A stretch of DNA of 64,000 bases, taken from Octopus sinensis (Eukaryota). Position numbers and translations under genes: made by a program. Position 1 is the first letter of the stretch. Every line of letters begins with the position of its first letter. The stretch lies in the NCBI RefSeq assembly GCF_006345805.1, contig NC_042999.1, positions 87,296,001 to 87,360,000 on the forward strand. Reading direction: 5' to 3'. Of this stretch, positions 1,390 through 60,340 are shown in pieces. The notes beneath the pieces were generated by a model, which was given only the letters and a program-made list of their open reading frames with translations, ran no database searches and was not told the DNA's origin.

Positions 1390-1505
1390 CCCTTCGTGGT
1401 GGTAGACAAAGTCGATTGCAGCAACTAATAAATTGGTGTGGAGGAAAAGATTTTGATGGTTGCCTCATCTTTGATGAATGCCATAAAGCGAAGAATTTTG
1501 TTCCT
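1390..1505 (+). CDS. SBNO-like exon, Walker B/DExH motif
   Basis: cag|...|gtaggt; [38 protein letters not shown]. Confidence 0.93.
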
Positions 1506-3839: not shown

Positions 3840-3870
<31 letters not shown>

Positions 3871-15800: not shown

Positions 15801-16427
15801 TAAAAAAATAAAAAAAAAAATGAGAAGCATGAAATACCATATATATACCTTCTTTTTTAGACCACAATCTTATATATTTGGTTCTTGAAATGCAAAGATA
15901 GTGGTGAGAACTTTATAGTCTACTAGATCTGACAATATGGTTGACTTAAATTCAAAATGCTCTAAAACTTAGGAAATTATAATTTTAATTAATAAGTTCA
16001 ATCACTCCTACTAATACTGCAAATCCCATTGGCTGTAGACATTAAAAAAAATACACACCTCAAGCTAATCAAAATCCGTCAGTGTCCTGTAAACTCACCT
16101 ATACACACCATGAACACTTTCTTGCAAAGCTGTTTCTCAACTTAGCAAATTTGTTTATCCCTCTTTCTTACACCCAAAATAATTTCTAATTACTACTACT
16201 ACAGCACTAGATTAATAAATTATGTTAACTCAGCAAGGGAGCCTTTATGTAATAACTCGATCAGTTAGAAACAGCAGCCAAATCACCCTCAGATTACATA
16301 GTACTATCTTAGAAAAGACATGCTGGATCATGGTGTTTTGAGTCCCCTGCAATGAGAAAAAGACAGTATGGTTGCATTTGGAATGCTTTGATCAGATCAC
16401 TGCTTGATCTAGGTTGATTTGGGATTA

Positions 16428-16460
<33 letters not shown>

Positions 16461-34400: not shown

Positions 34401-37400
34401 TTTGATATTCACATCAGGTTTATACCCTTCATCATTACTATTCTCAAAACAACTCTTATGAGCATTATCAACTTATTGTTTTTCTATCTGTCAAGATAGT
34501 GGAATAAGGTTTAGAAATAAACTTTTCCTCATTCTTTATTTACTATCATCTTCCTCTCGCTTGTTTAACTCTTTTGTACCAATTTCACCCTGAATTAAAT
34601 ATCACTTCTGGCAATTGTCTACTACTAACAAGCTGTCTACAATTAACCTCTTCCCACCTTTCTTCTTAGTCTTGAGTGCTTGCTTTTCAGGATTCTATTG
34701 GACATCCAATGATTGTACTTCAGTCATTGCAGGACTTCATTAGTTTTATCTTCTATTATTAACCATGTCTCATGGTGTAGATATTTTCAACATTACTTCT
34801 AATGTCAACTTTACATAAACAGTATCCAAACTGGCCCTCCCTCACTCAGTATATTAGTCATCATAGCATGTTGGAGTATGTAGTATGGTTCTAAAGCAGA
34901 GCCATTATGTAACTGCAACAAGTCTGTGGGGTGTGCATAGTAATTTTTTTGGCTACTTGCTTGCCATAAGATTGCTCAATCAGCATTGACTTGTAGTTAC
35001 ATAACAACTTCACACAAACCTTTCATATGAGATTTTATTTCTCATATATCATAAGCACATGACTAGCATACGATTAGTAAGTTGTAACTTGCAAAGATTA
35101 TTGAATATTTGAAATGAACTATTATCACATGCAGAAGATGTAGTCACTATGAAGTAAAAGTTGGTATTGGTCAAGAGTTTAAGCCATTGTGCTATGCCCC
35201 TGGGCAAAATATATGAGCATAATTGCCACTGCCTGGCAATTCATGTCTGAGTGATTTATTGTAGGAAGGGCTTCCACTTGTAAAAACTCCCTCTCTTCTC
35301 ATTTAGTAAGGGCATCCAACTGTAGAACTGTTTCTGCTCTGTACCCTGTGCTAGTATAAAATTGTTCAGGAAATATAAAATGTACCTGTGTATTGTATTT
35401 TCAAATTTGAGGCATAATTCATTAACCCTTTAGTGTTTAAACCGGCCAAATCCGGCCCAATATATTCTACATGTTTTATATTCAAACTGGCGATATCTAG
35501 CCTCTCACTCCTAACCTACAATGCCATTCTAAAAATAAGCAATCACATCATTGAAACCTCAAAGCTATAAGATAATGCTTGATTAATTCAAAACAATTTG
35601 AGTGAAAAAGTATTACATTTAACAGAGTATTCTGAACACTAAAGGGTTAAGTCTAGAAGCAGTCCATGTATCTCCTTGGACAAGCAGGCTACATAAATTA
35701 TTCATTGTACAAGTATCTGTCAAGCATTGTTGTCATTGGCATTACCTCTATCACTGTCTTCATTCCACATTTGGTTTTTCATGATGGTGTTGGTTGGGCA
35801 GTTCATCATTGTTTGAATTAGTTATTTGGAGTTAGTGCCTTTCACCTGGGTCACAAATCACTTTCCCTTAAACTGTAGCTTTGAAGATTTCAAAGCGCAG
35901 TCAAACCAATTCTACTATATGGCTCAGAAACCTGGACGTTATCAAAGAAGCTTGAGAGGCGGTTGGATGGAACCTACACTTGCCTCCTTATGAGGGCTCA
36001 AAATCTCTCGTGGAAGCGTCATCCAACCAAAATGTAAATATATGGGAAGCTACCACCTGTGTCATCTCTGAAATGTAGGAGAGTCCAGTTTGCTGGACAT
36101 TGTTGTAGAGCTGAAAACGAGGCAATTTCTCTTCTCTGGAAGCCATCTACTCGCGATACCAGAGGTCGCACACTCTCCTACCCTGATGTAATCTCCAGGG
36201 ATACAGGCATCCAGCAACAGGACCTCCGTTTGATGGACCGCGAAGTTTGGCGTAGCATGGTAAATTCCATTGTCTCAACCACGGTTGAACAATGATGATG
36301 ATGATTCCCTCAAACACTCAACTTTTGATATGGCTTCTACAGCTGGCTGCCTTTCCCATCATCAACCACTTCAAAAAGTACATTGGATGTATTTTATCAT
36401 TGATAACAGCACTAAAGAAATTACTCTATCTTATATTGTCTTCAAATATCTATTCACTCATACCAGAGAGGTTCTCTTTTTCCCTCTTCCTTGCATTGTC
36501 TCTATTCATTTGTTCTTGTCTGCCTAACTGGATGTGTAAAAAGGGATGTTTTCTGTTTTCTATCACATCACCAGTGCAGTTGTGTAATTATCTCCTATCA
36601 CTCTCTCTTCCTTTACATCAACACTCCTCTTCTCTCTCTTCCCCCTCCTATCACCTGTTTTCTTCTAACCTCCTCTTTAGCCTTTTTGTCCATCCATCTC
36701 CTTCCTCTTTTCACCTTGACCCTCTTTGGTTACACTATTGTTTGGTTTCTCTTCCATTACTCTTACATTCTGTAACCCACTTGCTCCTTATAATTCTGGT
36801 TTTCTTCTATCACTCTCTCCTTCTCTCAAACACTGCTCCTAGAGAGAGGTAGAGAGAATAATAGGATGGAAGGAGAGATGAAGGAGGAATTGAGAGAAGA
36901 AAGAGATAAGAAGGATGGCAGAATGATAAAAGAGAGACAGGATGATGAGAGTGAAGTAATAAAAGAGGGAAAATAATGGGGTGAGGGAGAGAATTAGTAA
37001 GTGATAGTTGAGAATATTGAAGAGAGAAAGCTGTAGATAGGAAGAACATGGTTAGTGGCATCATTTATAAATAATGTTCTAACTGTAGTCACCCCATCTT
37101 TATTGTGATCATGTTGTGTTAAGATTCTGATATTTTTCGGTCATGTATTTCTTATTTTATAGTCAGAAAGGAATTTTGTAAAAGATTCATGTCCAACCCA
37201 TGCTAGCATGGAACAGGGGCATTAAATGATGATGATTTAACTTGTACATTGAACAAATCTGGAGTCAACTTAGACTCTCTTTTATCTTTGCCAGCTAGCT
37301 TCAGTTTTATCTTGTGACCATTCCCTCTGCTATGTTCAATGTCTGCAGATACTCCCCTCTAGTACATCAGTCAACCCTTCTGAGTAATATTATAACGTAT

Positions 37401-39445
37401 TAGTCATTAAGGCTTACATTTTGATTGTTAATCTACCTCAAATTGATTATATATCTTTGTATGATCTCAATGAATTGATTATGTGACTTGATTTTTATTT
37501 TTGTTTGGAACCATTTCACTTCACTAACATTTTCTTAAGGTAGAGTATGGTCACAACACCAGCATCCTTCTCTGTCAATTTCTGAAATATGTGTGTATCT
37601 AAATGAATATGCTGTTGCCTTTTCAAATAGACATAAAGTGTAAGGCTTTTAGGTGTGCAAGATTTGGAAGTTATGATGTGCATGGCTTTTCCACATATAT
37701 TATCAGCATAAAGGAAATGTACTACCTATGATTGAAAATTGAGACTAGGTTTATATCTACTTTTGTTGCCTTCACACTCTGAAGATAAAAAAGCCGTTGC
37801 TTATTGAAAGATACTATTGTATATGAAAAATCAATAAATGAGGGAAAGGTATATTAAGTTTTTTTCAAATTTGTAATCTATAGAGTAAATAAATCACTCT
37901 CTCTCTCTCTAGTCTTATACTACTCATATTTTTGTTATGATGTCTGCAAGTCTGTTTGCCTAATCAATGTTTAACCTGTTACCTATTCAGTCTGTTTGAC
38001 TGTATATTGTTGTAAGTCTATTCCTAATAGCCTTCCTTATTCTAAAATTTCCACTGCAATGACCATTGAGTATATATGTGTGTGTGTGTGTGTGTGTGTA
38101 TGTATATAAAATTTTGTATTGCAGACATAGTTATGTAGTTGGAAAGCTTATTTCCTGACCACGTGAGCTTGGGTTTTGTCCTACTGCACAGCACCTTAGA
38201 CAAATGTCTTTTTGTAGTCCTGGGTCGACCAAGACCCTGTGAATGGATTTGGAAGATAGAAGCTATGTATATATGCATATGTGTACCCTTGTCTTGGTGG
38301 TTGTAAATGAGCATCATAAGTGACCATATTCATTTCCTGCCTTCCATGGTGAAGTATTGCCTTACTTGGAAACAGGTGTGGGTTAGCAAAGTGAAGGGCA
38401 TCCAGCTGTAGAAAATCTGCCTTAAATTCTCTATGACTCATACAAGCTTGTAAAAGTGGATGTGAAATAATGATGATGATGATATTGTTTTGACCCTGCT
38501 TTTAGAATAGGTACACTTTCCCATAAAATGAAAAGCTGGGATGGGGTGACCACGACTAGAACACCTTATATCATAAGTCTGCACTATCAGGACTGATCTT
38601 GTTTGAAACAACAACTACCATTATTTCTGTCATTTCAATTTTTGTATGCTGTTATATGTTTCCATAGCCACCTAGCTCCAGTCATTACTCTTTTGCTTTA
38701 TGTCATCATTGAGGTGTTGCATTTAAACATTTAATCTGTTTCATTCCAAATCTGTCTACTTCAACTTCTCACTCCCAACTCGTAACTTTTGTCTGAATTG
38801 TAGTTGTATGTCTAGCGTATATTAACTGATACTTATAATGCAAACATTCTCACCTTGTACTCCATCTCTTACAAAATCTACAGACACAAAACATATTATC
38901 TGTTTCTATCCAATCATTTCAAGATCTCTGGCCTTTACTGTCAGCTCTTCGCTATATATACAGCATCTCACTTTTGTTGCATGCATTACTCAATGTAACT
39001 TTTTGTACAGAAATTATTTTGCTGCCAAGAAAGGTATCAGTTGTCTAATCTCCACCCACTACTGTAGATGCTGCTGTTGCTGGTTTCAGTATCCAAAACT
39101 AATAAGTGCATGATACAAAAAAATACATCTTATTTGCCCCTTGTTTATCAGAGATATGAAACTTAGTCAAAAGCCTTCTCTGAGTCAACAAAGCCAATGG
39201 GTATATTCTTTGCAAAGTATATCTCTGGCATTTGTTTCACCAATTTTTCCTATCCTTTGTGACAATGCCAGCTCATTTCTTATGGGAACAAGCCCTCTCA
39301 GTCAACCATTTCAATGAAGTGTGCTTGAAGGTATCCATTTGTATGTACCTCTGTTTAACAATATACTGGATAACTAGATATAGCGTATCTATACATAAAT
39401 ACATATATACATGCAGAAAATAAAGATCACACATATTGATGATTT

Positions 39446-39487
<42 letters not shown>

Positions 39488-41289
39488 GTTTAACATATAT
39501 ATTTAATGTTCATTTTCCATTCTGGCATCGGTTGGACAGCTTGACAGGAGCTGGCCATCCGGAGAGCTGTGCTGGCTTCAGTTGTCTGTTTTGGCTTGGC
39601 TTCTATGGCTGGGTGCTATTCCTTATGTCAATCACTTTACAAAGTGTAGTGGGTCGTTTTCTACGTGGCACCGGTGCTTCTTAAATGGTACTGGTATGGG
39701 TGCTTCTTGGGTGTTACCAGCATGCCTGTGGCACCAGTATGATGTGTATATAAGATCATTGATTGCACTTTACTTTGTAGTTTTTGATGAAAGTATATTC
39801 ATTCACAATTTTTTTTATGTTAGAATGCTAGTAAATTTAGCATTGACCACAGTTCTTATTTGAAGTTTTGATGAAACCAGAAAAGTTATTTGAAATATAA
39901 AAAAGATAAAAAGATAAAAAAATGAAAATTTTCTTCAAAACATGAAGTCTGGTAATATAAAACAATGAAGACGAGAGTATTGTGTGAATGAAACATTGTC
40001 AGACAATGAAATTTTTATTGAAATTGAATCAGTAGTAGAGTTAGCAGTAGTAGTAGTTATTGTAGCATTTAGTAGCATGTTAGTAGTATTAGAAATAATA
40101 TGTGCAATAAAATGACATACAAAAGTCATAACTTATTGGCAATAAAATATTGAACAACCCTAGCGATTCATTCTTAAAAATGTGGGTTACCAGCTGACCA
40201 CCACTGCTTCACTCACAGCACACAAAGGCCATTCACAGCCATTGGTGATGGAGGGAAGATTGGTTAAAGTGAATGAGAGGAAAATGGAACAAAATCATCC
40301 TATAACATATTTGAAAAACTTTTATTTCTTTCAGAGTTGTTGTTGATTTTAATTTTCATCTATTTTTGTTGCATTTCTGATCATTAGTTTATTCTAAGTA
40401 TTTTTTTCACACAATCACTTAGAAATCTTCCTGTTAATCTCAGTGTAAAATATCTTCAGCTTTTCTGAGTCTAAACTCACTTTTCTTCTTCAAGATATTT
40501 GAATTATTTTTATCCATAATTCTGAAACTGTAAAACACAACTGGGTCTTAATTTTACTGCTAAGTGCTCTACAAATTAGTGTAGCATGGTTCAAGAATCT
40601 ATTTGATCCTGTTGCTGCATTGGAGCAGAATGGAAGAGTAACTGAAATAATTTTACTAATTTATAATATTTGCTATTTCCGTGATAATTGACAAAGTCCT
40701 ATTATTTTCTTGAATGATATTAAACTTAAGCTACTGAGTTTGTAAAAGTTCTTCCTATTGAATGGTTTGAATGTGTATTTTAATTGCTAGAATAATGTAA
40801 TTTCTGATATTCCAACTAAAAACGTATTAAAAATCTTTTATAACTTGTTTATAAATTTTGTGCTGTTAGCTTTATTCCTAATTTTAAAGAACTGTTATAA
40901 GGTTTACTATCTTTGCAAGTATTTTCTCAAAGATACAGACTTCCAGCTGTGATCTTATGAGCATATAGGCTACTCTGCAAAATTATTGAACCTGTTTTAT
41001 CTAAAGGTAAAATAAAAAATGTACCTGATTTCTAGAAATCCTGAAACATTATCTTTCTAATTGGGCTTTATTGATACAATTTGTATATTTTTTTGTACAA
41101 ATATGTAAGTATCAAGAGTAAAAGGGTTAGAAGAGAGTTAATGACCCGCATAGTTGGACCCTTGAGTTTTTCTCCTTATTCAGATTTAATTTATTAATCC
41201 ACAAAATTTTAGAGCAAAGCGTAATTCTTTTAAAACAATTTATAAAGCTAATATTTCCATTAAGGCTGATTTTCTTTTTTAGCCTAAAA

Positions 41290-41362
<73 letters not shown>

Positions 41363-44300
41363 CCATTATATATAATGAAGTTAGGTTCTCTATGTGGTGT
41401 CATTTATGAAAAATTAGTGCTTTAATCACTTGAGGCTTATTTCCTTTCAAACTTTACTCTTTTCCACCTCTTTATTTTTGTTGATACCAACATTTGGAAT
41501 GAAATATAAAAACAAAAACAAAAAAAAATATATAAGTTCCATTTTATGCTCTCTGCAATGTTTTAGTTCAGGTAGGTGAGTGCATTATTTTACTGCATTG
41601 AAATCATATCTAATTCTCTCTGTAAACAGAAAACTTATCGAACTCTTTCACAGGTGAAAAATCAAAATTTTCATTTTAGAAATATTAAAATCCATTTTGA
41701 AAATAATAAGCTACAGTAAAAATAGTTGGCTTAAAAGAAGATTGAAATCTTAGCAGTGATTTTGAATGTGGTGAAATTATTTGTATTTTTCAAGAGCATT
41801 CCATTAGTGTTTTTAAAATCATTTTTTTTTCTCTTATATTGGCTTGGCCATATAATATTTCCACTTTGAGTATGGTCTTGTATGAAATGTTGTGATCAGC
41901 AGCTATCTGTATCATTTACAGCAGAATCAATAATAAATATAATTTAAATCCAAACAGACCTATGGCAGACCATATTACACTGTCATTCATGCATCCATTC
42001 ATTCATTTTTCTCTTAATTCTTTCTCTCTTCAAAACAGAAATAATCACCTTAAGTCTGTGTGTGTGTGCATGCATGAGCCTGTGTATACATATGTTTGTG
42101 TGTGTTATTCTGTATTAAAAACATTTGATTCATTTTCAGAAAAAAGCAATGGCATTTGAATATTGCACCTATTGCAACAGAAGCATTGCCAAGACACAAA
42201 ACTTTTTTTTTCAAATAATTGCTCACTCTCTAAAACCTTTATTGTCTTGTGACTTCTTCTATCAAGCCTTGCAAATATAGTTTGCTTTTTTTATCAAACA
42301 ACATACTGAGATGCACTTAAAAGACATTGCTATAATATGAAAATGATATCAATGTAGATCAGTATGAAAATGTATGTCTTGACAGTGAATATTATTGTGC
42401 CAGCTGCAATGAAATACAGAACTGTTTTGAAATAATTTTTTTTTATTTCAATGTTCATCAGTTAGAAGTTAACTTTTATTAGGACAGTTCTTGACAAAGA
42501 ATACATTCAAATAGACATTTATGAGAAAAAGTTTATGATAAGTTTAGAGAGACATTTTATAAGGAAAACTGGTAGTAATATAACCTGCATATTGTTTAGC
42601 CTTTAAAACAAAGCAATATTGCAGTGGTAGGTATGTGCATTTAAATTATTACTCCATACAGAGTGGTAGATGTGTTCAACATATTGACAAAATTGAATTC
42701 ACTACAACTAACATGTTTGAAAAGTTAACACCAAATTTCAGCAGATAGAAATTGGGTTCTTGTCAGTATTCAGTGGACATGCCTTCTAGATAGACAACAT
42801 GGTTCTCCTCAGAGGTATTGTTGATTATTACTTATTCTCATCTTTTCAACACATTTTGCAAAGGACTAAATTATTGTCGCTTATTTTATATTTATGCAAA
42901 GTTTAGTTTGTGCGTTTTTTCCTTTGTATTCACAGGAAAAGTAAAGAAAAGCCAGTTAATGTTTACACCCTTAACTTTTAGTGTGCAATTTCATAACAAA
43001 AAAGAGACATTTTACTTAGATTTATGTCCTACGATATTTAACAGTTTTCAATAATAGCGTCATCAACAATTTGATGAAGTATTTTGTTATCATTTCTGCT
43101 TAAGAATCAAATCATTTTCTATAAGAGGGCAAGAGCCCCCACTTCCCTTATTAAAAAAAAAAAAAAAAAAAACTTAGCCATTGATACCTAACAATTGCAA
43201 CAGAAATGAAAGATGCTTCTTATGAATGCTTTAGACGTATGATATTACCTCTTGGAGGAAAGGTTTTTTTTATTGTTAAGTTTTCTTATTGGCATATCTG
43301 AGATTCTTATGTTGTGAGCACACCGACTGATACTGTTAAGAATAAGCCAAGTTTCTCTTTGAATTGAACATTAGTTATGTTAAATTTTCCTTCCTCTCAT
43401 CCATAAGACTATTGCACATGGTGATTTACTGTTTCAATTAAACTACTATTTGTTAAGTTTACTCATTACATCTGCCTCTCTGTCAGACTGAAATTGCGCA
43501 TAATGTTGTGTGAATTATTTTCTTTATTTTAGTTCTTTTAAAAAAACAACAAAAAAACAAAAAAAGAAACATGAAATGGTAACAACGGATCCTTGTTTGA
43601 ATCAATTGTTATTACATAATTTATGGTTCACTATATACAGTTAACTACCACATAATACAAAAGAGAAACACTGAAGGAAAAAAAAAAAGAAATGTATTTT
43701 TTGAATTTGTTTTTTTTTATTTTTGACTCGATTGTCAAATTCTAGATCTCCTGCTTTCACTTGAGGATGTTGAAAAGGCAGACGTAAACTTAGTTGTTGT
43801 TCATTTAACTTACATTCTCTAACATTTAGGTTTCCAGTGTTTGCGTTTATGATTTAAAAATAGCACAACCATACAGTAATGGTGGTGGTAGTAATAGTAG
43901 TAATAATTAGTAGTAGAAGTGCTATATACACTTTTGAAATTTTGTTTTTTAATATTTGATCTTTGATATTTAAATATTGTTTTTGTGAACTTTGTCAGAA
44001 GTTGAAATGACCATCTATCTTTGCTGTTTTACTGGAAAAGAATAATAGAAAGGAAATTTCCTTTGTGAAGATAACTCTCGTGGAAGTTAATGATTTTCTA
44101 AATTTTTAGTTTATGACACAGCCATATTGAGCCCTTCATTTATCTACTGTGCATTGTTGGTATTCCTTATGTGAATGTCTAGTAAATTGTCTTATTGAGA
44201 GAATATTTTATTCTAGTTAGTAAAATGATGTGAGAATATAAAGTCTGGATTGAATTTTGTTTTTCTGCAATCACTAGCAAATTAGAACTTATTTATACTT

Positions 44301-47300
44301 CAGTAAATGGTTTTTTTTAGTGTTTTTGATAAATTTGCTTTTTATACATAAGCTCCTCCTTATTGTTGGTAAGTTTCAATGACTAAGGTTAGCTAAATAT
44401 AACACAACTGCCTGATTATGGGTAATCCTCAAAGTGAAATTGGATTGTGTGGCAGGTCAGTAAGATACAAGTGAGCCAATTCTTTGACATATTATCACAC
44501 TATGCAATTGATTTTGCACTTTAGAATAAAAATAAAATCAAAACAACAATGACAAGAAAAATTACAGTCTGAGCATTGAAATGGTAAAAAGTATAAATGA
44601 ATTGTCTATTAAGTGTTTATTGCTTTCACTGGAAAAGTTCCAAGTTATGTACAAATAATCAAATTAATAAAAAGGCATGTAAAAACATTTAACTACTGAT
44701 GTCAAAATTGTTCAAGATTTCGTGTAAAACATTTTTATTTTGAAATTATAAATATTTTTCATGTTTTAATATATATAGAATTAGTTTTATTTTTGATGTT
44801 GGGATAAAGATAAAAAGTTTAATGCTTTGGGTAGATTTAAAAACATTGGGATTAAAAATTGGGGTGGGGAATAGTTTAAAATACTTTCTCATTTTTTTTT
44901 TTAAATAAAATTTGGATACCATGTGGAAATTTAATTACTGATGTTATCTCATTTAAAAAGGTTCTTCTATTTTTCTCAATGAAATTAATATATTTTAATT
45001 AGATCTTAAATAAGTAAAATTAAATTGTACAATCTAGTAAAAACACATGCTATCTCTGCAGGTGCTTTGGAATTTACATACATTTATGTATAATTGTATA
45101 TTTATACATAGACATATGAATTGAGAGGATGGATGTTCTATCTACAAGTGCATACAGTTATATACATTAATACAATGTCTCTAATAACCTGAAACCAACT
45201 GAACAGATTTAAGAGAAGGTGTTTATTGTCGATATCATATTTTGATTGACTCTGACTCCTCTTTTATCAGGCATTTGTATTTTAGGTTTATAAAGCAAGC
45301 ATATTTGACTAGTGACATCAGCAGACAACATCATTGAAACTAAATATTCTGTGTAAATTTTGATTTGTAGTTCTTCAGCTACTGAGCTATGAAAATTATT
45401 GCTTCTCGAATGAGTACTGTTATTGCTTGTCGAATGGGAACTATAATAAAAAGATATCCCTGAAGAGCAGAATTTATATTTTTGAATATTTTTTTTTCTT
45501 TTAAGTTAAGAGCGAACTTTTCACTTTGGAACAAACCGACATTCTTTGTTCATTTACAGCACAGCCATGTTAACTTAACATAGGTGCTTTGAGAAAGTTG
45601 AACACATTTGTTTTTTTCAGTCAACATATATCGATGTTCATAAATTGTTTAATCGATGTTAATTACAATTTCTCATCATAAGTTTAAATTTTAACATTTT
45701 CTTCACCTTATTTTATCCTTTTTTTTGTAATATATTTTCCTCTGTAAAATATTTACAGAGTTCACCAGTGGAAGAAATTTTTAAACACTCTGTTATTGCT
45801 CAGTGAATATTTAGTGGCAGTCTCATATTTTATATCAGCATGAAAATATATTGCTATAACATTTGTATATTTTTGCTGTACACATATGTATCCAGAGAGG
45901 TCATAATCTGTAAAATAAGACATCAAAGCAAAGATATATAAGGCCAGCTAAGGCTTATTAAAGATTTTACAAAGACAATTTTCAGCAGAGAATATTCAAT
46001 AAATTGCAGATTTTTAAAAGACAATACATTTTTTTTTTTAGATACTTTTTATATAGAATTAATTTTTAAAAATGTACAGTGTTAATTTTCATAAAACGTT
46101 TATATTGCTTGGAATTTAAACTTTATTTTAATATTATTTATATCTTTGAATTTTTTTTTTTAATTGGTTTCTCTTCCTTTCACCTTAGATAATTTCATAT
46201 TCAGTATATTTGGGAAACTTAATTACTGCCCACTTTTTGTTTTAGAACAAGTCTTTTGCTTTTAACTATCATTTAGTATATTTCAGTATTTACCTGTTCC
46301 AAATCTTATACTATTCTTCTATATGTTTTTCTCATTTTCTCTGGAACTATTTTTATTTTCTCATAATTTTTATATATATTATTTCTTTGCAAGTTACAAT
46401 TGAATTTCTTCAATTTCATTCATCAGTTTCAGTTTCATGCCCTACAATATTTATCAAGACAATTCATGCTTTCAAATTTCCTAAGATTTCCATTCCTCAA
46501 CATTTCAACTTGTCATTTTAAACTGAGGATTTTATTTCATCTGTTTTACTGATTATCTCTTTGCAGTGATTTATCATATTTAAACGATAATTTAATGTCA
46601 ATTGATATATATTTTAAACTATTGTTTTTCTTCAGTTGATTAACAAGAGATCAATGAGTCAGTGATCATATTGATTTTGAACTCTGATCATTTAGTATTT
46701 AGTTTCAATGTTCAATCATTAGTGCTTATCATAGTTTCAATTATGGAAGACTCTTCTTTATTAAATCTCTTTTGAAGATTGCTACGTACAGTTAGTTTTT
46801 GCTTAATTTGCTTATTAATTAGAAGAATATTTTGAGATATATTATTGTGTCCAGAAGAGAAACCATTGTGGTCTTAAATATTTATTGCTGTAATTTCAAC
46901 TTATCTCACTGTTTAATATCTTATCGAATAATAGAATTGGACAGGAAAAAAGAAAACATCACCCTTTTTATGTAAATGAGCCATTATAAAATTCTTTTGT
47001 GACTTAATGAGTCAAATACAACATTTATCATTTCTCTCATGTCTAGGAGGTAGACAAAAAAAAAAGAAAAAAAAAAGAGAGACCCCCTCCCTCCCCTTAC
47101 AAAAACAATGAGGTAAGAAAAAAGGTGTTTTTTTTTCTAAGAATTTTGATTTCATCTATTTTTGACCACATTAGAGGGTTTACATATATAACAAGAGCTT
47201 TCATTGGAATCTCCCATTCATTATTATGAACTCAGTAGTCGAAATAGTTGAGTTTGATTGATTCTGTTTCTTTTTTTTTTGACATGTTAATGAAATCTTT

Positions 47301-48186
47301 TTTTTTTTTAATAGAAGTCAATTTGTAGCTAACAGTTTATTAAGGGTTAGCTTCTTCCTCCTTAGATTATTACCCCCACCTGCACCCCATTCAGATTATT
47401 GAAATGAAGCTTTTTTTTGTTTTATTATATATAATTGAGCAAGCTATGAAAAAAAAATGGGTGAAAAAGATAGTAGTGTATGGTCACCATGTTCAACGAT
47501 AAACAGAATGAGTTTAATGTCAACCATAACAAGAATAACGTTGAATTAGTGTAGAAATTCTAAGGTCATGCATGGAAGTCAGCAAAAAAGAGTATGAGGA
47601 ATGAAAATTGCAGTTACCTATGTCAAAAGAAGTTGTTTGTGTAGAAATTATTATTATTATTATTAATATTATTATTATTATTATTATTATTATTGTATGA
47701 CAAATAGTGTTGGCTGGTGCAAGGTATTTTAATGTGTTCTGGAAATTTTCAGAAAATCATCAAGTGGTGGTGGTGGGGGGTAATGAATTATTTCTTTGTT
47801 TTTAAAAATGTTACTTTCCCAATTGAGATGGTGGGATAATTGCTACTTTAGACAAGTAGTTCTTCAACTGTTCTTGCATATAATAGGTACTTCAGCCGTT
47901 AGTGTATGTAACAATGGAATGTCTCTCATCCAAGTTATGTTACCTAACAGCAAAACACTTAGGCACCTCAACTGTTAGTGTTACCTAACACATAACAGCT
48001 AGGTTATATCAGCTATCAGTGTATTTACTAATGAAGCACCGACTACATCAGTTGGTAGTAGCTTATAACAACTACATAAAGTCTTTAATTAAAAATAAAA
48101 TAAGTAACATCTGATGGTTTTAGTTACACACACACACGCACACAAAATGTATGTTCCCTTAAAAGATGACATATCTTTAAAAGGAG

Positions 48187-48220
<34 letters not shown>

Positions 48221-51200
48221 GGGAGAGAGTGACTTGATGTAGACTGGTCATAATGTGATTCTGAAATGTGAAAGAATAAATTCCTCTTTTGATCTACACT
48301 ACTGGTCAAATAAATGAGCAACAGGTGTTTACCCACCTTTCTCTGGTTGTAAACACCTGCTGATTGATATAATAAACTTGTGGACATGTCAGACTTTGAT
48401 TGGGGGGGAAGTGATCAGTTAAGTGCCATTTGAAATTTGATTAACAATATCTCATCTGTCTCCCCAGGAACAACAGCAGTGGCTTTATGAGCCAGTTGAT
48501 ACTGCTGTCTTGATGGAGACAAAAATGGAAAAATTGAATAGGAAAATGGGGAGGGGGGAAATAAAAAAAAAAAAACCATCAGTTATAGTTCATATTCTAT
48601 GTATGACCATTTTCTTCAGTTTTAGTATTCAGTCATTACTATTGCTAGGTTGAGTTTATTGCTTTTTGATGTATTCTCTTGCTCAAGGAGAATTCCATTT
48701 TTTTTCCTTCTTGTGCTTCCTCACTCTTCACATTGCATCCTCAATATTCTGACAGAATCATCATGTTAATTATTTACGTATTCTATTATCGTTGTGTTTT
48801 TTTCTTCAACTTTCACAATTATTGTATAGTTTTTTGCTTTTTTTTCCTGTACTGTTTTCTTTTCTTACCACTGTTTTTAATAATTACCAGAATTTTTTTT
48901 CAGATTCCATGCAGCAAGGTTAATTGGTATTGCCAATATAAAGTAAGAGGGAGTTAGAGGGTGAGTGTGGGGGGGGGGAAATGTTTTTTTTTTTTATAGA
49001 GTACCTGTTAATATTTTTTTAAACTTTTTTTTTTCTTTGCTTTGTATTAATGGACAGTTGAACCCAGGTGGGTTTAATATTACTATGCTGCATTACCACA
49101 AGTTGTCTTCAGTCTGCCTAAAAAAAAAAAAAAGGATACAAAAGTTGATTAAAACTATGTTGTAATACACATTGTTTTGATTGTACATATTGTGAAATTG
49201 GAACATAATAGGAAGCATCTAATTATAAACTCAGACGTTTTCATTAATGTTTAATAGAATAGAGACCGTTAGAATGTTTAAAATAGATTGAATCTCAGAA
49301 ATGGTGCTTTGCAGCTATCTGATTTGCTGAGGAATGTGTATTTGCTGACCTGTGTTCATCAGAATAGTTTTTTTTTAAATTTAGACATATTTATAACCAA
49401 AAATGCAACTCATTCTCTTTCAGGTTTTCTTAATCTTGAAAATGATATTTGAAAATTTATGAAAGCTAATAACAACTTTGAAAAAATAAAAAAAATATGG
49501 TAACCATTATCTTCTTGACTTCTCATCTTACCTTGTCTTTATCTCTCTTTTTAGAAAAGGCATGGCAGGAACAGCATGAGGCAACTGAGGATCACTGCAT
49601 GCATGGTAGGCTGTGTCGGAACCGTGGAGCTTGTACAGGTTTTGTTCATTTCTTCTTCAGCTAAAACATATAACAACATTTTATGGTTTAATTTGCTTAG
49701 AATATTTATTTCTGAATAAAACACGTGTGTGATGTTCAATGAGTGATTAGGAATAAGAAGGAATAGAGATAAAGTTTACGATCTGAAATAAGATAGCATT
49801 GTCTGAAGGAATTTTTTTTGTTATTTTTAAAGATTTTATCTAAAGAAATCTTGATACCTGTTTTAATGAAGTAAAGTCCATTAATTTAATTGTATAAGTG
49901 TATGTGTGCATGAAAAGAAAGTATGAGAGAAGAAACACTGCTTAATAATCTCTGAAAAGTTTCAGCCATTTTGACTATTTCAGCAATGATTAGCCTGGAC
50001 GTCTGGTTGTTGAGATTGTATTAGATGTAGTAGTTTTAATTAACAGCAAAAGTAGTAATGATAACAATTATGCTTAATAACAAATGACAAACAAATTCTT
50101 TCCTTTTCCTTAGTTGGGAGTCGGTGTTATTTCATGCATCTTCTGTGTGGGAGTATTATAACACTAATGTCAGTTTTGGAAGCAGTTATTGCTCGTCACT
50201 CATATCAAATGCATCTCAGGTAGGTTGTGAATTTGATTTGCTAAACTATAATCTATTATCTCTTCTTACTCATGTTGTTTATAGTTTTCTTTTTCCCCAT
50301 CTTTCTAATTATTATTATTAATTTTTTTTTGTTGCATTTAAATTTGTGAAAAAAAGTTATGTGAGATAATGAAAGTCATTTAAGACTGTAAACTTAGTGC
50401 AATTGAATTGTTGGTGATGTCTGGTATTAGAAGTTTAATGAGAATTTCATAGAAGAAATAAAAATAGCATTTAATACTTAAGCACAAACCTGAAATTGTG
50501 GTGGGTGTAGGGAGCAAAGTATCAGAAATCAGTCTTCTTCACTGAACACAAAATTATAGAAAAAAGGAATTTCTGTTCTAATTTTTCTCATCTTTTATCT
50601 TACCTAATCCCTATTCTCTATCTCTACCTTCTGCCCTAAGTATGCCATCTCACTGCAGAGCATATTTTAATTTTGGCAGACACTCTGAACAGTTCTTAGT
50701 CTTTTACTCATGACTATTTCTGCAGTTAAGTATGCCAGTGCATCTGGTGCACTTAAATTTGTTTCTGTAATCAGTGTCAGGAAATGCAAAATTCTTTGAA
50801 ATATTTTTTGATGCTGTAAGATATTCAGTTTAAATTACATTTACCTGTCACAAATTACATTTACCTTTATTGTATGTAGATTACGGTAATCCAATTACGT
50901 TACCTGATACAAATTGCATTTATTTTTATAGTTTGTTGATTGTTACTTGTTGCACTAAATGTAATTATTGTTACCATGCTTAAGGTTTAGTTCTGTTTTT
51001 GTTCTTTCTTTTTAAAGTAAAGCTGAGTCTTCCATTCGAGTTGTACGGATTCAACTTAACAATGGTGAGCGTGTTGTTGGTATCCGTTACCCAGAACGTC
51101 TCATTGGTGAGGTTGAGAAAGTTCTCAGAGAACATCAGCTTGTCAATCAGTTGCAGATGATGAATAACAATGTTAGTATCCTTGCTATAATTTACCATAT

Positions 51201-51936
51201 TCTCTATGGAATTTTATTTTTCTGATATGTTACTAGATATTTCTCTGTCATACTGTCTCTTTCTTTTCCTGTTTTTGTACTATATTTTTTATTGATTATA
51301 TATTTTTGCTTTTTGTTTCAGTCATCAACGCAGACCAATGACACTGTTATACCAAATTTTAATTCTTCATCGAACAAGTTCATCATTGAAGCTGCCTCTC
51401 CAGTGATTCCAAAATATGTTAACAAGGCATTTACTCCACAATTTAACATGCACTCGTTTTTCAAGTCTAATCCACGTAGTCATGTGATGCCGTCTTCAAT
51501 GAGCAGAAGTTCATGTAAAGTAAGACCGATGGAACAAAATCTGGTCAATGATTCCAACAATCAGCTCATGCCATACAATAGTGCACCAGCACAACATTCC
51601 TTATCCATTGCTAGCAGTGCTACAAGTAATAATTTCAATAAAGGAGTGTCTTGTAGTGCTATTTGCAGCAGCAGTGAGAGCAGTATTACCAGTGATCCTT
51701 ACAAAATGAACATGTCCCGAAAACGGCGTTTTAACAACTACAGCTTTGATAATTGCATTGATATGAATAGCAATTGCAAGCAACAAACTCTTGTGTCTCT
51801 TTTTGCTAAAAATACTGTCAATAGGCTGGAGAGTCCACTAGTAACTGGCCAGCAGTGTCCAGTATGCAGCATGAATTTTGAGCTGGGCACCACTAATGAT
51901 CAGATCAATGCTCATGTTGATAACTGTCTTTTGTAA
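1390..51936 (+). CDS. SBNO-like: Strawberry-notch family SF2 helicase-like protein (SBNO/FORGETTER1-like paralogue); 5'-partial, 25 exons in window
   Basis: Exons join with consistent phases and GT-AG ends: 1390-1505, 3657-3709, 4244-4307, 5256-5346, 7300-7379, 8767-8834, 9790-9900, 10334-10427, 11473-11589, 14270-14358, 15551-15722, 17434-17494, 18064-18193, 18995-19080, 19978-20093, 20240-20320, 22309-22443, 23242-23303, 25414-25515, 29206-29379, 30388-30470, 49555-49638, 50114-50219, 51018-51171, 51322-51936. Family motifs: [102 protein letters not shown]. Confidence 0.95.
1880..2737 (+). mobile_element. Young retroposon (SINE or RTE-type 3' end) with internal 11 x ~60-bp tandem array and (GAT)n tail
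   Basis: Tandem units 1901-2573, then the family 3' segment gagtggttggcgttaggaagggcatccagcc...catgctagcatggaaaacggacgctaaacgatgatgatg; CpGs intact. Confidence 0.85.
3657..3709 (+). CDS. SBNO-like exon
   Basis: tag|...|gtaaat; [18 protein letters not shown]. Confidence 0.9.
4244..4307 (+). CDS. SBNO-like exon, motif III (SAT)
   Basis: cag|...|gtaaga; [21 protein letters not shown]. Confidence 0.93.
4716..5026. mobile_element. hAT-type MITE
   Basis: Terminal inverted repeats caagggttttc / gagaacccctg; 8-bp target-site duplication ggataaat / gggtaaat. Confidence 0.75.
5256..5346 (+). CDS. SBNO-like exon
   Basis: tag|...|gtaaat; [30 protein letters not shown]. Confidence 0.93.
5455..5762 (+). 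mobile_element. (GAT)n-tailed SINE-like retroposon
   Basis: Same 3' segment as the 2575-2737 copy, ending gacgttaaatgatgatgatg. Confidence 0.85.
6540..6998 (+). mobile_element. (GAT)n-tailed SINE-like retroposon with internal duplicated units
   Basis: Repeated gtaaaagcac units plus the family 3' end. Confidence 0.85.
7300..7379 (+). CDS. SBNO-like exon
   Basis: cag|...|gtaaat; [27 protein letters not shown]. Confidence 0.93.
8767..8834 (+). CDS. SBNO-like exon
   Basis: cag|...|gtatat; [23 protein letters not shown]. Confidence 0.88.
8988..9194 (-). mobile_element. TTAA (piggyBac-type) MITE, family A, degenerate
   Basis: Reverse-complement similarity to the 35422-35650 and 17612-17823 copies. 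Confidence 0.7.
9790..9900 (+). CDS. SBNO-like exon
   Basis: cag|...|gtaagt; [37 protein letters not shown]. Confidence 0.93.
10334..10427 (+). CDS. SBNO-like exon
   Basis: cag|...|gtaagt; [31 protein letters not shown]. Confidence 0.93.
10525..10825 (+). mobile_element. (GAT)n-tailed SINE-like retroposon
   Basis: Family 3' segment and tail. Shorter fragments near 8290-8468, 12356-12484, 26178-26310, 37190-37236, and on the minus strand near 31518-31670 and 39505-39740. Confidence 0.85.
10920..11073. repeat. Long inverted repeat / fold-back MITE-like element
   Basis: ~50-bp arms tttgggaaaaactgttatatgctagaaaatatgcatgttaatttccattt and its near-perfect reverse complement. Confidence 0.8.
11473..11589 (+). 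CDS. SBNO-like exon
   Basis: tag|...|gtaagt; [39 protein letters not shown]. Confidence 0.9.
13908..14120 (+). mobile_element. CORE-type SINE, degenerate
   Basis: gactttgcctttcatccttttggggctgataaaataaatatcagtcaaatactgggg core-like segment. Confidence 0.6.
14270..14358 (+). CDS. SBNO-like exon
   Basis: cag|...|gtataa; [30 protein letters not shown]. Confidence 0.88.
15091..15323. mobile_element. Palindromic MITE with long terminal inverted repeats
   Basis: ~95-bp near-perfect arms starting tattgtgtctggggagagtcattttctttttgtg and ending cacaaaaagaaaatgactttccccagacacaata. Confidence 0.85.
15551..15722 (+). CDS. SBNO-like exon, start of C-terminal helicase domain
   Basis: cag|...|gtaagt; [27 protein letters not shown]...LESLNVNE. 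Confidence 0.94.
16428..16630 (-). mobile_element. 5'-truncated CR1/L2-like LINE 3' end with (ATT)n tail
   Basis: Minus strand reads [27 protein letters not shown], then a short UTR and a microsatellite tail. Confidence 0.8.
17434..17494 (+). CDS. SBNO-like exon
   Basis: cag|...|gtgaga; [20 protein letters not shown]. Confidence 0.93.
17612..17823 (+). mobile_element. TTAA MITE, family A
   Basis: ttaagcctttagcattt ... gaatgctgaaaggttaa; similar to 35422-35650. Confidence 0.8.
18064..18193 (+). CDS. SBNO-like exon, motifs V-VI
   Basis: cag|...|gtaagt; [43 protein letters not shown]. Confidence 0.95.
18995..19080 (+). CDS. SBNO-like exon
   Basis: cag|...|gtaaat; [28 protein letters not shown]. 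Confidence 0.93.
19184..19431. repeat. Two-copy tandem duplication, ~125-bp unit
   Basis: taatttatatttaata...aatatttaatgaaaatagg...taaaattcaa occurs twice with substitutions. Confidence 0.8.
19978..20093 (+). CDS. SBNO-like exon
   Basis: tag|...|gtgagt; [39 protein letters not shown]. Confidence 0.94.
20240..20320 (+). CDS. SBNO-like exon
   Basis: cag|...|gtttga; [27 protein letters not shown]; phase 0/0. Confidence 0.85.
21571..21965 (-). mobile_element. Non-autonomous Helitron
   Basis: Minus strand starts A|TC(tttatatataaaag), ends with hairpin cccgagcaacgccggg then CTAA|T; no TSD. Confidence 0.8.
21973..22175. mobile_element. TTAA MITE, family B
   Basis: ttaatccttttgatacca ... tgataacaaaagggttaa; second copy at 34075-34301. 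Confidence 0.8.
22309..22443 (+). CDS. SBNO-like exon
   Basis: tag|...|gtaatt; [12 protein letters not shown]...[20 protein letters not shown]. Confidence 0.92.
23242..23303 (+). CDS. SBNO-like exon
   Basis: cag|...|gtaagt; [21 protein letters not shown]. Confidence 0.92.
25414..25515 (+). CDS. SBNO-like exon
   Basis: tag|...|gtaagt; [34 protein letters not shown]. Confidence 0.9.
25800..26760 (-). mobile_element. Degenerate RTE-type LINE fragment (endonuclease region), interrupted by a SINE 3' end
   Basis: Minus strand reads [17 protein letters not shown], resembling the APE YAPQ...K..FY motif; boundaries approximate. Confidence 0.55.
29206..29379 (+). CDS. SBNO-like exon
   Basis: tag|...|gtttgt; [16 protein letters not shown]...GFYLSK...NIFKVVR. 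Confidence 0.92.
30388..30470 (+). CDS. SBNO-like exon, before the 19-kb intron
   Basis: tag|...|gtaaat; [27 protein letters not shown] (RPNTG motif spans the junction). Confidence 0.92.
32450..33340 (-). mobile_element. Degenerate RTE-type LINE reverse-transcriptase fragments
   Basis: Minus strand reads [27 protein letters not shown], resembling RT AIF..RQLQEK...AFVDLEKAF; boundaries approximate. Confidence 0.6.
34075..34301. mobile_element. TTAA MITE, family B
   Basis: ttaacccttttactacca ... tggcaacagaaggg; similar to 21973-22175. Confidence 0.75.
35422..35650. mobile_element. TTAA MITE, family A
   Basis: Terminal inverted repeats ttaaccctttagtgtt / aacactaaagggttaa. Confidence 0.88.
35874..36304 (+). 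mobile_element. 5'-truncated RTE-clade LINE with (TGA)n tail
   Basis: [11 protein letters not shown]...RRVQFAGHC...DREVWR (one in-frame stop); 11-bp TSD ttcccttaaac / ttccctcaaac. Confidence 0.88.
38118..38483 (+). mobile_element. tRNA-derived SINE, near full length, degenerate
   Basis: tRNA-like head similar to 61562-61680; gggcatccagctgtagaaa segment; (GAT)n tail. Confidence 0.75.
49555..49638 (+). CDS. SBNO-like exon, Cys/His cluster
   Basis: tag|...|gttttg; [28 protein letters not shown]; phase matches the exon ending at 30470. Confidence 0.88.
50114..50219 (+). CDS. SBNO-like exon
   Basis: tag|...|gtaggt; [35 protein letters not shown]. Confidence 0.9.
51018..51171 (+). CDS. SBNO-like exon
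   Basis: aag|...|gttagt; [41 protein letters not shown]... Confidence 0.88.
51322..51936 (+). CDS. SBNO-like terminal exon: Ser/Asn-rich tail with PIP boxes, NLS and UBZ-type zinc finger
   Basis: cag| acceptor after a pyrimidine tract; open for 204 codons to TAA; contains [20 protein letters not shown] and CPVC-x15-H-x3-C. Confidence 0.88.
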   Translation, partial: SSTQTNDTVIPNFNSSSNKFIIEAASPVIPKYVNKAFTPQFNMHSFFKSNPRSHVMPSSMSRSSCKVRPMEQNLVNDSNNQLMPYNSAPAQHSLSIASSATSNNFNKGVSCSAICSSSESSITSDPYKMNMSRKRRFNNYSFDNCIDMNSNCKQQTLVSLFAKNTVNRLESPLVTGQQCPVCSMNFELGTTNDQINAHVDNCLL

Positions 51937-52048
51937 CAGGCAACTAACTCATTTTTTTTAAGTTATTCAAAATTGAAAGAAGAAAACATGGAAAAAGGAA
52001 CGGCACATTTTTTTTTGTTGAATTTTAGTATTGAAGGAGACATACGTA

Positions 52049-52054
52049 AATAAA
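52049..52054 (+). promoter_or_regulatory. Candidate polyadenylation signal
   Basis: AATAAA about 115 nt after the stop, followed by a GT/T-rich element near 52097-52115. Confidence 0.4.
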
Positions 52055-55000
52055 CCTAACACTTATATAACATTAAATACTAATTTAAATTAAAAGTTTG
52101 TGTTGTTGTTTTTTATTTAGATATTGTGTTCTGAGAGAGAGAGAGAGAGAGAGAGCAATTGCTTGCAGGGACAAATTAACCTGCTTTTTTTATAAACAAA
52201 AATGAATAAGGGAACACTTCTCCTGAATCTATTTCTTTTGACGTAGTGGTGTATTGTATTAGGTTACATCTCACAGTGTTTAGTGTTGACTCCAGTTTCA
52301 TATGTACAAATTTGGATATCTTTACTAGAAACTTGCAGGTCAGGTCTCTTCCCCACCACCAAATTAGAGAAAAAAAAATTTGGTTGAGTGCTATTTGCTG
52401 CAATCCTATAATTTGTTTGTCAAAACAATTCCGTCAGTGTACAGCTGCAGGACAGACATTTGTCAGAATGGTGTGTATGTGTGTGAGATGTTCATGTATA
52501 TATGAGAATGTGTGTATCTATATATAATACTGGTAAACATTGGGAAGTTGATGTCATGGAATTACTAATTCTGTAGCCCTCTTAATACTGCAGTATTAGT
52601 TCCAATGTGCAGATATTAAACTTTTGCTGAGCTGATTAGCTCTGTCTACTGAGCATATGGTTGAAATGACTAATATCTTGTCACCATTGCTGCACTGGCT
52701 TATTCTTACTAAATTTTCTAGCTATAAATGGGTACCATTTGAATTATATCCTTTTACTGTAGGGAGTAGGACTTTAGTTAACATGTATGCTCTAAGTTTG
52801 CAGTGCTGAGTTCAAGTCTTGCTTTGAGTTAAGAGAAGGTAGTTTGAAGTATTATATCAGATTACATCAATAGCTATAAACAGACTATAAATCACTTCAG
52901 TGAAGATTGCTATTTAATATCATATTAAATTTACAAGCCTCCCCAACTAAAATTCCACAATGATAACATATTGTAAGTTGGTTATATATTATTTTAATAT
53001 TACAAGTTATTACTAGAGTACTGTAGATTTACATAAGTCAGTTGTTTTGTATACACATATTGTAGAGGAATGGAAATATTATTTAGCCACAGGTCAACCC
53101 TGATCAAGCAAACTTATGATTGAAGGTATCCCACCCATGATCACCCTTTCTGTTTTTTACAGTTATGTCTAGTAGTATACTAATCCAAGGGAACCATATA
53201 TAAAACTGAAGTGTAATTTGAATTGATAGAAATATCAGGCAGGTTAAGTGTTTACTTGTTATTAATAAATTCTATTCACTGCTAATGCTATACACCAATC
53301 ATACAATGGTTAGTCCACATTACTCCGTAAGGAGCATAGTGCTGGTTTCCCAGTTTATCTGGCATATATATTCCTTTCTGGACAGGAATTGAAACCACAA
53401 TCTTAGTCATGAGCCCAACACTGTAATGACAAAGTCACTGCCTCCACACAATTATACTATACTCTACACCAGAAAAGACTAACCATATTTCTAAAAATAT
53501 TTTTTCTTAGTTTTGTAAATCATAGATCCATATCAAATTGGTTCAAATTCCACTGGTTCCTATCTTGATTGATAAACTAAATACCAGTTATGTACACTGG
53601 CCTTGGTACAACAATTATTTTTTGAGACATTCCATGAAGAAGACTAATCTGAATCTATTTGGTTTCTAACATCTAAAAGGAGCTGATGGTTTTTGGTGTC
53701 AATATTTGTTTCCTATGATCTCTCATTGTTTTACAAATGTATCCTATTAATCCTAGTTTATTCTCTTCCTGTAAGTGTTTGTTCACACCTCATTTTATTG
53801 ATAACATAAAACTTTTGATACAGAATAAAATATCTTTGATGTGAATGGAGAGCCTCTTCCACATCAGCAATACTAGAAAGGAAGAAAGTATTTTGTATTG
53901 CTGTCTATTATTGAGCTATTTTGTTTAGTCTTGGTCTTTCTCACTACCTTTTCTGTCTCACATACACATACTTGTTTCAAATGGAATTAGTAGACATAGG
54001 TGAGAGGTTCATACGCAAAGTATTGATTCTTTCAGATATTGTTTTACAGCATTTTTTATATGAATAATACAATCAAATGAACCACCTAAAATCTGAAATT
54101 CCATTTAATATCGAACCAGTTTCTCTTCTGTAGACTATGCAGAACTTTATAGAATCTTTAATACAATGGTTTTTTTCCCCCCAATTTGACTAAACCATTA
54201 CATTTTTCTAATTTAATCTTACAAATCTGTTGATTGCAGATGAACAAAGATACATAGTTTGTAAGTTTCATGCTGTCAATGTTATTTGAAGTGAGATTTG
54301 CTTAAAGATCAGTCAAATGAGCATTCATTATTTTGCCTCACATAAAATATATTGAATTTTACATAACGAATTAGGATGATTCTTCTGTTTCTATAAATTG
54401 ACTTATTGCAGACATTAATCTTATACTTTGTTAACCTCTTCACATCCAAGTTTGGTTATTTCGATTTAGCTTTTTGTCTAACAATCTCATGTGCTGTAGC
54501 ATGTTCAGATCCAAACTGACAGCAAATAAATCAACTAAGCTTAGATGTTAGCTAGAACTGCACTCTTTGTTCCCCAGAGTTTAATGATCAATAATTTGTT
54601 GGGTAGTGAGTCGAGTTTCTGTCTTTCTGATTATCATTTCAACTGACATGGTTAGAAATAACTTCCTCGTTTCACTGAGGTTTACTCAATTTCTCGCGTC
54701 AGTGAAGTGCTTGTATGAATATTTGAAAATACGAGTATCTATTAAGATAGTTTTTGTTTATTAACTTTCAGTGAATGAATACATTGTGTGAGCATCTAAA
54801 AATATTACTTTTGAAGACCAAACTAGTCACATATTTCCATATATCACTAAATATGAAGACCTTTGTCTTTTTTAATTTTTTTTTACAAAATTCATGGTTT
54901 TAGACGATATCATTTGGCTACATTTTATGTAGGATATTTTACTGAGCATAGTCAAACCAAATACTTTCACACTGTTTAAGTTAATTTACAAACAGAAAAT

Positions 55001-60102: not shown

Positions 60103-60107
<5 letters not shown>
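59384..60107 (-). mobile_element. CR1/Jockey-like LINE reverse-transcriptase fragment
   Basis: Minus strand reads PIHKGGSR...ISLTSHISKVMERIV, DVIYLDFAKTFDKVD and SGVPQGTVLG. Confidence 0.9.
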
Positions 60108-60177
<70 letters not shown>

Positions 60178-60249
60178 ACACATATATACACATATATGTA
60201 TTTACACACGCATACACACACACACATATATACATACACACATATATAC

Positions 60250-60340
<91 letters not shown>
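60108..60340. repeat. (TA)n/(CA)n compound microsatellite
   Basis: Read directly; similar tracts at 59125-59190, 60665-60745, 60885-61096, 61318-61390 and 61509-61560. Confidence 0.95.

Follow-up and report, generated by a model that had tools for sequence, protein, structure and literature searches.

A strawberry-notch paralogue of Octopus sinensis with a conserved tail of putative PCNA- and ubiquitin-binding motifs

To our knowledge, strawberry-notch proteins have been described only in transcription and chromatin regulation. The described members, fly Sno, vertebrate SBNO1 and SBNO2, and plant FORGETTER1 (FGT1), have the same AAA_34, Helicase_C_4 and SBNO domains and the same ATPase motifs as the Octopus sinensis protein analyzed here, whose gene reaches into a 64,000-nucleotide stretch of contig NC_042999.1 (positions 87,296,001 to 87,360,000, forward strand; hereafter the window). 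It differs from them in falling on a separate branch of the core tree, in a genome that has its own canonical sno, and it has neither the zinc ribbons nor the PHD finger of FGT1. Its C-terminal tail carries two candidate PCNA-interacting peptide (PIP) boxes, one (box A) ending a longer conserved island (island A) and the other called site B, followed by a terminal candidate ubiquitin-binding zinc finger (UBZ) that is replaced in some relatives by a ubiquitin-associated (UBA) domain; none of the 33 long-tailed proteins from outside the octopus branch had this arrangement.

Comparable combinations are described in other ATPase families. ZRANB3, a SNF2-type fork remodeller with PIP, APIM and NZF motifs, likewise joins a motor to two clamp boxes and a ubiquitin-binding zinc finger (PMC6116012), although in the octopus protein these elements are candidates only. 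The octopus protein belongs to an ATPase family different from that of ZRANB3 and SMARCAL1, and Pfam found no SNF2-rel_dom, HARP or HNH domain in it, the SNF2 likeness being one of fold. The nearest solved fold to the core is that of CSB (ERCC6), a SNF2 motor that carries a ubiquitin-binding domain at its C terminus (PMC2885502); however, CSB is from a different family, shares 12-13% identity, and works on stalled RNA polymerase II (Pol II). The octopus finger has in common with the type 4 UBZ of RAD18 and WRNIP1 the CCHC ligands, the Pro-[IV] loop and the helix N-x-H-[IV]-D-x-C, and differs from it by four extra residues between loop and helix and by its C-terminal position; the same four extra residues are seen in the FAAP20 finger, its nearest match by fold.

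The tail exon, its islands and the terminal finger

The last coding exon (51322..51936, plus strand, stop codon at 51934-51936) encodes a tail of 204 amino acids that is mostly disordered according to a model of the tail. As a search query, the tail returned one protein, a 1500-amino-acid RefSeq model from O. sinensis that was 100% identical across the tail and is named 'strawberry notch homolog 1 isoform X1'. Pfam placed AAA_34 (404 bits), Helicase_C_4 (343 bits) and the SBNO alpha/beta domain (73 bits) above their cut-offs in this protein, which makes it a member of the SBNO ATPase family, and Walker A (amino acids 395-404, upstream of the window), DExH (Walker B), motif III and motif VI were all intact.

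An earlier note on this DNA had proposed that the tail exon is spliced to the helicase exons at the junction 51171/51322, and this was confirmed by contigs from three studies. We compared window positions 49400-53400 with four sequencing runs, which were guessed to be RNA or whose kind was not stated. The GT..AG joints 49636/50112, 50217/51016 and 51171/51322 were found in three of the four (X7, X13 and X17, each from a different study), and one 4676-nt contig of X17 spanned core and tail, its positions 2314-1194 matching helicase-C exons and its positions 1110-1 the last four exons. Because the contigs skip GT..AG introns, they point to spliced molecules even though the type of run was only guessed, and the objection that the exon might not be joined to the helicase exons is thereby overcome. 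Run X1 had only unspliced sense contigs at the tail-exon joints, and a tail-less isoform of 1217 amino acids is annotated too, in RefSeq and in O. vulgaris. Isoform X2 (window 49638 onward) runs into the intron after amino acid 1209 and stops there, so that it is without the entire tail and the last part of the core, and the intron contigs at this site were far shallower than the spliced joint. We also observed a spliced antisense transcript (49118-49660, minus strand) that overlaps the SBNO exon 49553-49637. Its contigs in X1, X7 and X13 span approximately 49532-49660 and are joined, with minus-strand GT..AG ends, to sequence ending near 49117; its depth was 854 in X1, the run without any spliced sense contig, and no other neighbouring exon of it was found within the window.

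The four motifs named in the note all lie where it had placed them: QFNMHSFF at 51439-51462, RKRR at 51718-51729, QQTLVSLF at 51781-51804, and a CPVC..H..DNC finger at 51856-51927. In 20,000 shuffles of the tail, a strict PIP arose at a frequency of 0.0065, an RKRR-type cluster at 0.006 and Q-x-x-h-x-x-x-F at 0.13, which is weak alone, and the UBZ pattern did not arise at all (0/20,000). Conservation per position was counted over 45 aligned animal proteins, and the presence of motifs was counted over tails of at least 60 residues (50 animal tails, 34 from other members of the branch, and 33 from outside it). The set of 34 includes two long-branch rows of the Macrostomum cluster (P0187 and P0195) and many rows of unknown origin, and the patterns used for these counts and for the linker boxes of distant members, above all that for SUMO-interacting motifs (SIMs), were written after the sequences had been seen. 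Within an unconserved linker, the 45 animal proteins retained three islands, so the proposed islands of conservation are real: the FF motif was present in 48/50 animal tails, the Q-led motif in 31/50 and the CCHC finger in 43/50. SIM-like motifs occurred in 6/34 of the other branch tails and in 6/50 animal tails (0.5 and 0.9 expected).

Island A (51388..51465, plus strand) comprises 26 residues that align among animals, algae, euglenids and ichthyosporeans, with the family pattern E-x3-P-V-x2-K-x4-K-A-x2-P-P-x-T-[IL]-K-[NST]-F-F-K and, in the animal alignment, the ending T-[ILM]-K-[NST]-[FY]-F-K. The terminal FF box was found in 26/34 of the other branch tails and 3/33 of the outside tails (shuffled expectations of 0.4, 0.5 and 3.0 for animal, other and outside tails). 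Positions 4, 7 and 8 of box A matched the PIP consensus in 45/45 animal proteins; position 1 was P in 39/45 and Q in only two, both from octopus. Thus, QFNMHSFF fits the exact PIP consensus in octopus, as had been noted, but its Q1 is not conserved in the orthologues and the family box is not a canonical PIP. Since Q is confined to octopus at this position, the exact match is, from the alignment, a lineage accident on a Q-less PIP-like box that ends a longer island. A noncanonical PIP departs from the canonical Q1-x-x-h4-x-x-a7-a8 in having h4 and a7/a8 but no Q1, or else Q1, h4 and a8 with a single aromatic; box A and site B, in a tail disordered between its islands, both have such characteristics. 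Boxes without Q1 are described for Pol eta, Pol kappa, PARG and RNASEH2B (PMC6116012), and boxes with a single aromatic for FANCM, TRAIP and Srs2 (PMC6116012, the review by Slade). A second box of the same kind was present in the linker of 11/28 distant members (0.7 expected), and it was a fully canonical PIP in Bugula P0059 and in P0181. At the C terminus of P0177, island A ends in T-D-F-F with Arg at +4; T-D-F-F with a basic +4 residue is described as the PIP-degron pattern (PMC6116012).

Site B (51769..51804, plus strand) is a PIP-like box fused to a basic cluster, with the family pattern K-[RK]-x-K-Q-x-x-[IL]-x-x-x-F, in which Q was retained in 38/45, h4 in 41/45 and F in 32/45 animal proteins. 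Of the two boxes, this PIP-like one (QQTLVSLF in octopus) is that whose Q is conserved, although the motif is weak by shuffling alone and is missing from 19 of the 50 animal tails. RKRR (51718..51729, plus strand) is the first basic cluster, with its K and R conserved in 41/45 and 37/45, and this conserved KR stands some 10-15 residues before site B. RKRR had been taken for a nuclear localization signal (NLS); it is the first half of what is likely a bipartite NLS in the orthologues, completed by the basic cluster of site B, and nuclear import would follow from it.

The tail ends in a CCHC zinc finger (51856..51927, plus strand) with a Pro-[IV] loop and a helix Asp, which by alignment, profile and tail model resembles the UBZ of the RAD18/WRNIP1 group. 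Its ligands were conserved in 44, 44, 43 and 43 of the 45 animal proteins (C, C, H, C), as were the loop P (44) and I/V (43) and the helix D (43), and the UBZ pattern was further found in 5/34 of the other branch tails and 0/33 of the outside tails. The best sequence matches of the family finger profile in the PDB were the UBZs of FAAP20, RAD18, WRNIP1 and TAX1BP1 (E 0.016-0.35). WRNIP1 contacts ubiquitin through Pro21-Val22 and Asp37 (Toma et al., PMC4370504), and the equivalents of these residues are kept in the family finger, whereas those of the FAAP20/Pol eta contacts are not: Asn and Asp stand where that type has Asp two residues before and Ala two residues after the His. The ligands, loop and helix Asp therefore assign the finger, by sequence comparison, to the RAD18/WRNIP1 kind, as a ubiquitin-type finger had been predicted. 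In the tail model, the finger had a predicted local distance difference test score (pLDDT) of 94-97 and fitted the FAAP20 UBZ with a root-mean-square deviation of 0.7 A over 27 residues (E 0.7).

In 5/31 proteins scanned, a 90-amino-acid fragment of one of them not being counted, a UBA domain stood at the C terminus instead of the UBZ, with E-values of 9e-9, 1e-7 and 2e-6 (above the Pfam cut-off) and of 7e-4 and 3e-3 (below it); the named members that bear it are green algae. One of the 31 had a weak RanBP/NZF-type match (E 0.0016). The presence of an unrelated ubiquitin-binding fold in the same place strengthens the idea of ubiquitin reading, and this replacement is the strongest independent sign that the C-terminal position may bind ubiquitin.

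A separate strawberry-notch branch

At a second octopus locus (contig C1, approximately 117.73 Mb), four scored exons were 71-95% identical to fly Sno and 47-70% identical to the tailed protein. Thus, the tail gene is a paralogue and the canonical sno sits elsewhere in the genome. The suggested paralogy is borne out by this locus and by the protein's own branch in trees of the core. The tailed protein is not a Sno/SBNO1/SBNO2 orthologue, since it does not group with fly Sno in the core tree and another locus of the genome matches Sno better, nor is it an orthologue of FGT1, whose N-terminal domains were not found in it and with which it did not group.

Of the 79 proteins returned by a search with amino acids 960-1500, approximately 55 were close relatives; these came from molluscs, annelids, nemerteans, a bryozoan, echinoderms, amphioxus, cnidarians and Trichoplax and outscored plant FGT1 and fly Sno, the exceptions being a fragment and a partial row that fell among the plants. 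No vertebrate, arthropod, nematode, fungal or land-plant member was among the close hits of this word-limited search, which does not by itself show loss in model organisms. Another 147 proteins came from a profile search of 1.84 billion representatives; among 20 rows looked up, the tailed members that could be named were Picocystis, Auxenochlorella, Picochlorum, Entosiphon, Peranema, Ichthyophonus, Creolimax and Macrostomum. In the ESM Atlas, the whole protein matched FGT1/SBNO clusters and the C-terminal part gave no usable match. Viral contigs yielded only distant relatives (25-39% identity), with no viral match for P0270.

All trees were built on core columns, with the tail left out, and included no named vertebrate SBNO. 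In a FastTree tree of 222 of 225 rows (P0014, P0249 and P0284 were left out for low fill), all rows with island A or a UBZ fell on one side of a branch with a support of 96. An IQ-TREE analysis of 46 rows gave values in the Shimodaira-Hasegawa-like approximate likelihood ratio test (SH-aLRT) of 100 for the tail group, 99 for Sno and 99 for FGT1, with the Sno and FGT1 labels of unnamed rows taken from the FastTree tree. A mixture-model tree of 36 rows, including two motif-less long-branch rows, gave the same values (100, 99 and 99) in a quick search whose support was SH-aLRT, with no bootstrap or approximately unbiased test. Judged from these sequences, the tail branch is a separate strawberry-notch branch with animal, green-algal, euglenid and ichthyosporean members. 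Because animals, green algae and euglenids share this one supported branch, it would be at least as old as their split if it was inherited vertically.

Several orthologues are labelled 'FORGETTER 1-like' in RefSeq, and this name and 'SBNO1' are wrong for members of the branch and have hidden it. The open-access literature (supplements excluded) yielded no account of the branch, nor any mention of a UBZ, UBA or PIP in a strawberry-notch protein, and the branch apparently is undescribed, a spliced and deeply conserved architecture within a known family. Automatic databases may already flag the terminal finger, and PANTHER may have a subfamily for these proteins. The fish gene si:ch73-63e15.2 may be this paralogue. 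That gene is called 'SBNO2' in a gene list (PMC11955638).

Recruitment by PCNA and ubiquitin and the alternatives

An AlphaFold model of a crinoid orthologue (pLDDT 80.6) had as its nearest folds the ATPases of CSB, ISWI/SNF2h, Ino80 and CHD (E 4e-12 upward, 10-15% identity), and the core is predicted to have a SNF2-like fold; no solved structure was found for any close relative of the core. Sno-like enzymes are classed with SWI2/SNF2 ATPases, which move on double-stranded DNA without opening it (Iyer et al., PMC5512222). We lean slightly toward the octopus protein being a SNF2-type double-stranded DNA translocase recruited by PCNA and ubiquitin, as predicted from motifs and fold, and a role in DNA damage tolerance is a well-motivated proposal. 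The basic clusters would direct nuclear import, the FF box of island A would bind PCNA weakly, with site B as a second, dispensable PCNA box, and the finger, or the UBA in green algae, would bind ubiquitin. The avidity from ubiquitin would arise only with a ubiquitinated clamp or ubiquitinated chromatin close by; at replication sites that are stalled or damaged, the protein would dock on ubiquitin-marked PCNA, and its ATP-driven movement on double-stranded DNA may remodel a fork, a nucleosome or a stalled protein complex. Recruitment by weak PCNA boxes and a ubiquitin reader follows the logic of ZRANB3 and the translesion polymerases. The interpretation in the earlier note holds in part: for the paralogue, its splicing, the islands and the RAD18/WRNIP1-type finger, but not for an exact PIP or for RKRR as a complete NLS, and with a role at forks as a prediction.

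Several observations weigh against recruitment by PCNA and ubiquitin. Q1 of box A is P in 39/45 proteins, and island A, at three times the length of a PIP box, may do something else. Site B is kept in 31/50 animal tails, many gastropods and sea stars being without it, and several branch members have neither site B nor the UBZ. The UBZ_FAAP20 profile scores below the Pfam cut-off in the octopus tail (15 versus 25 bits), and the UBZ matches in the PDB are weak (E 0.016-0.17). In the FastTree tree, the UBA rows lie in one subgroup, and because they cluster together, the swap may have been a single event. A ten-row long-branch subgroup within the tail branch (P0248, P0241, P0293, P0298, P0217, P0264, P0228, P0267, P0270 and P0304) has, by pattern, neither island A nor a ubiquitin-binding domain. 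The nearest folds, at only 10-15% identity, are transcription and chromatin enzymes, and the sister branches Sno, FGT1 and SBNO1 are described as acting in transcription (PMC5040591, PMC12289961), with Sbno1 protecting the genome indirectly through Yeats4 (PMC12289961).

These sister proteins, all transcription and chromatin factors, and the top fold matches, CSB in Pol II repair complexes and nucleosome remodellers, would suit a chromatin or transcription-coupled motor whose finger reads ubiquitinated histones, Pol II or K63 chains and whose FF boxes bind a partner other than PCNA, such as the REV1 C terminus, MutL, 9-1-1 or another protein; the lack of Q1 in box A points the same way. FF motifs cross-react among PCNA, REV1 and MutL, and UBZ domains of the RAD18/WRNIP1 group also read ubiquitin chains at damage sites, not necessarily on PCNA. 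The fingers of RAD18, WRNIP1 and FAAP20 are reported to bind K63 chains (PMC4370504). However, the two boxes per tail point to the PCNA pocket, as do the full PIP consensus that unrelated lineages have reached repeatedly (box A in octopus; site B in Bugula and P0181) and the TD with basic +4 pattern of P0177, and we consider such a motor somewhat unlikely. Still less probable, in our judgment, is that island A acts within the molecule, folding back onto its own ATPase core in a structural or autoinhibitory role, with an incidental likeness to PIP and with the terminal domain as a generic ubiquitin handle for turnover or regulation. Its 26 residues, with an invariant E and A far from FF, its fixed place after the core, and its order with a short strand bridge in the full-length crinoid model (pLDDT 92, 95 and 79) speak for this, but a model of the tail alone from a different species, disordered between the islands, gave island A nearly equal confidence (88, 89 and 80), so its order is independent of the core, and FF boxes stand free of an upstream helix in 11/28 distant members. 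For the same reason, we do not take the high confidence of the full-length model to prove that island A docks on the core, and with the island ordered in both, neither model decides the question. Finally, the tail-less isoform and the unspliced contigs of X1 could be taken to mean that the tail is an annotation artefact or a nonfunctional extension with chance motifs, a reading to which we give almost no credence, as it is refuted by the spliced joints from three studies, by the core-to-tail contig, and by islands kept as far as Trichoplax, algae and euglenids.

Remaining features and significance

The window holds 25 exon segments of the 1500-amino-acid protein (amino acids 487-1500), all on the plus strand, and seven more lie upstream of it. 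The C-terminal half of the AAA_34 ATPase lobe (1389..8835; six exons, amino acids 487-644) contains the Walker B motif DECH (amino acids 515-518) and motif III, and is followed by a helical insert between the two ATPase lobes (9791..14356; four exons, amino acids 645-780), the Helicase_C_4 lobe with motif VI at amino acids 890-900 (15549..25516; nine exons, amino acids 781-1096), and the SBNO alpha/beta domain with the end of the folded core (29207..51171, including a 19-kb intron; five exons, amino acids 1097-1296). After the tail exon, the plus-strand 3' untranslated region (51937..52452) has AATAAA/ATTAAA hexamers near 52049-52089, and spliced contigs end at 52085, 52093 and 52452. The first coding exon (L012:1560-2486, 18 kb upstream of the window) encodes a Ser/Thr/Pro-rich N terminus of 309 amino acids that is absent from most orthologues. 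An intronic GC-rich tandem array of about 11 units (period 61/123) occupies 1900-2568, and fragments at 35885-36292, 59384-60804 and 63397-63714 resemble reverse transcriptase pieces of long interspersed nuclear elements, judging the translations by eye. Elsewhere in the assembly, the compact contig C8703 (L002, L005) encodes PCNA, an AAA ATPase that resembles VPS4 and a canonical-type sno; the introns of all three are very short, and the contig is probably a parasite or contaminant.

We put forward more tentatively, as a claim that has somewhat less than an even chance of being correct, that the strawberry-notch family includes a third, ancient eukaryotic lineage serving as a so far unrecognised motor of DNA damage tolerance, a functional counterpart of ZRANB3 on a different SNF2-type core that reads PCNA and ubiquitin (SUMO in some protists), dates from early eukaryotes, and has been missed as the standard model organisms appear to be without it. 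If true, a eukaryote-wide branch whose tail targets both clamp and ubiquitin would bring another motor into DNA damage tolerance, a reading that could be tested in the members from Hydra, sea urchin, amphioxus, oyster and small green algae. The strawberry-notch family would also gain a biochemical handle, in the form of a recruitment signal, a substrate and residues that can be mutated.

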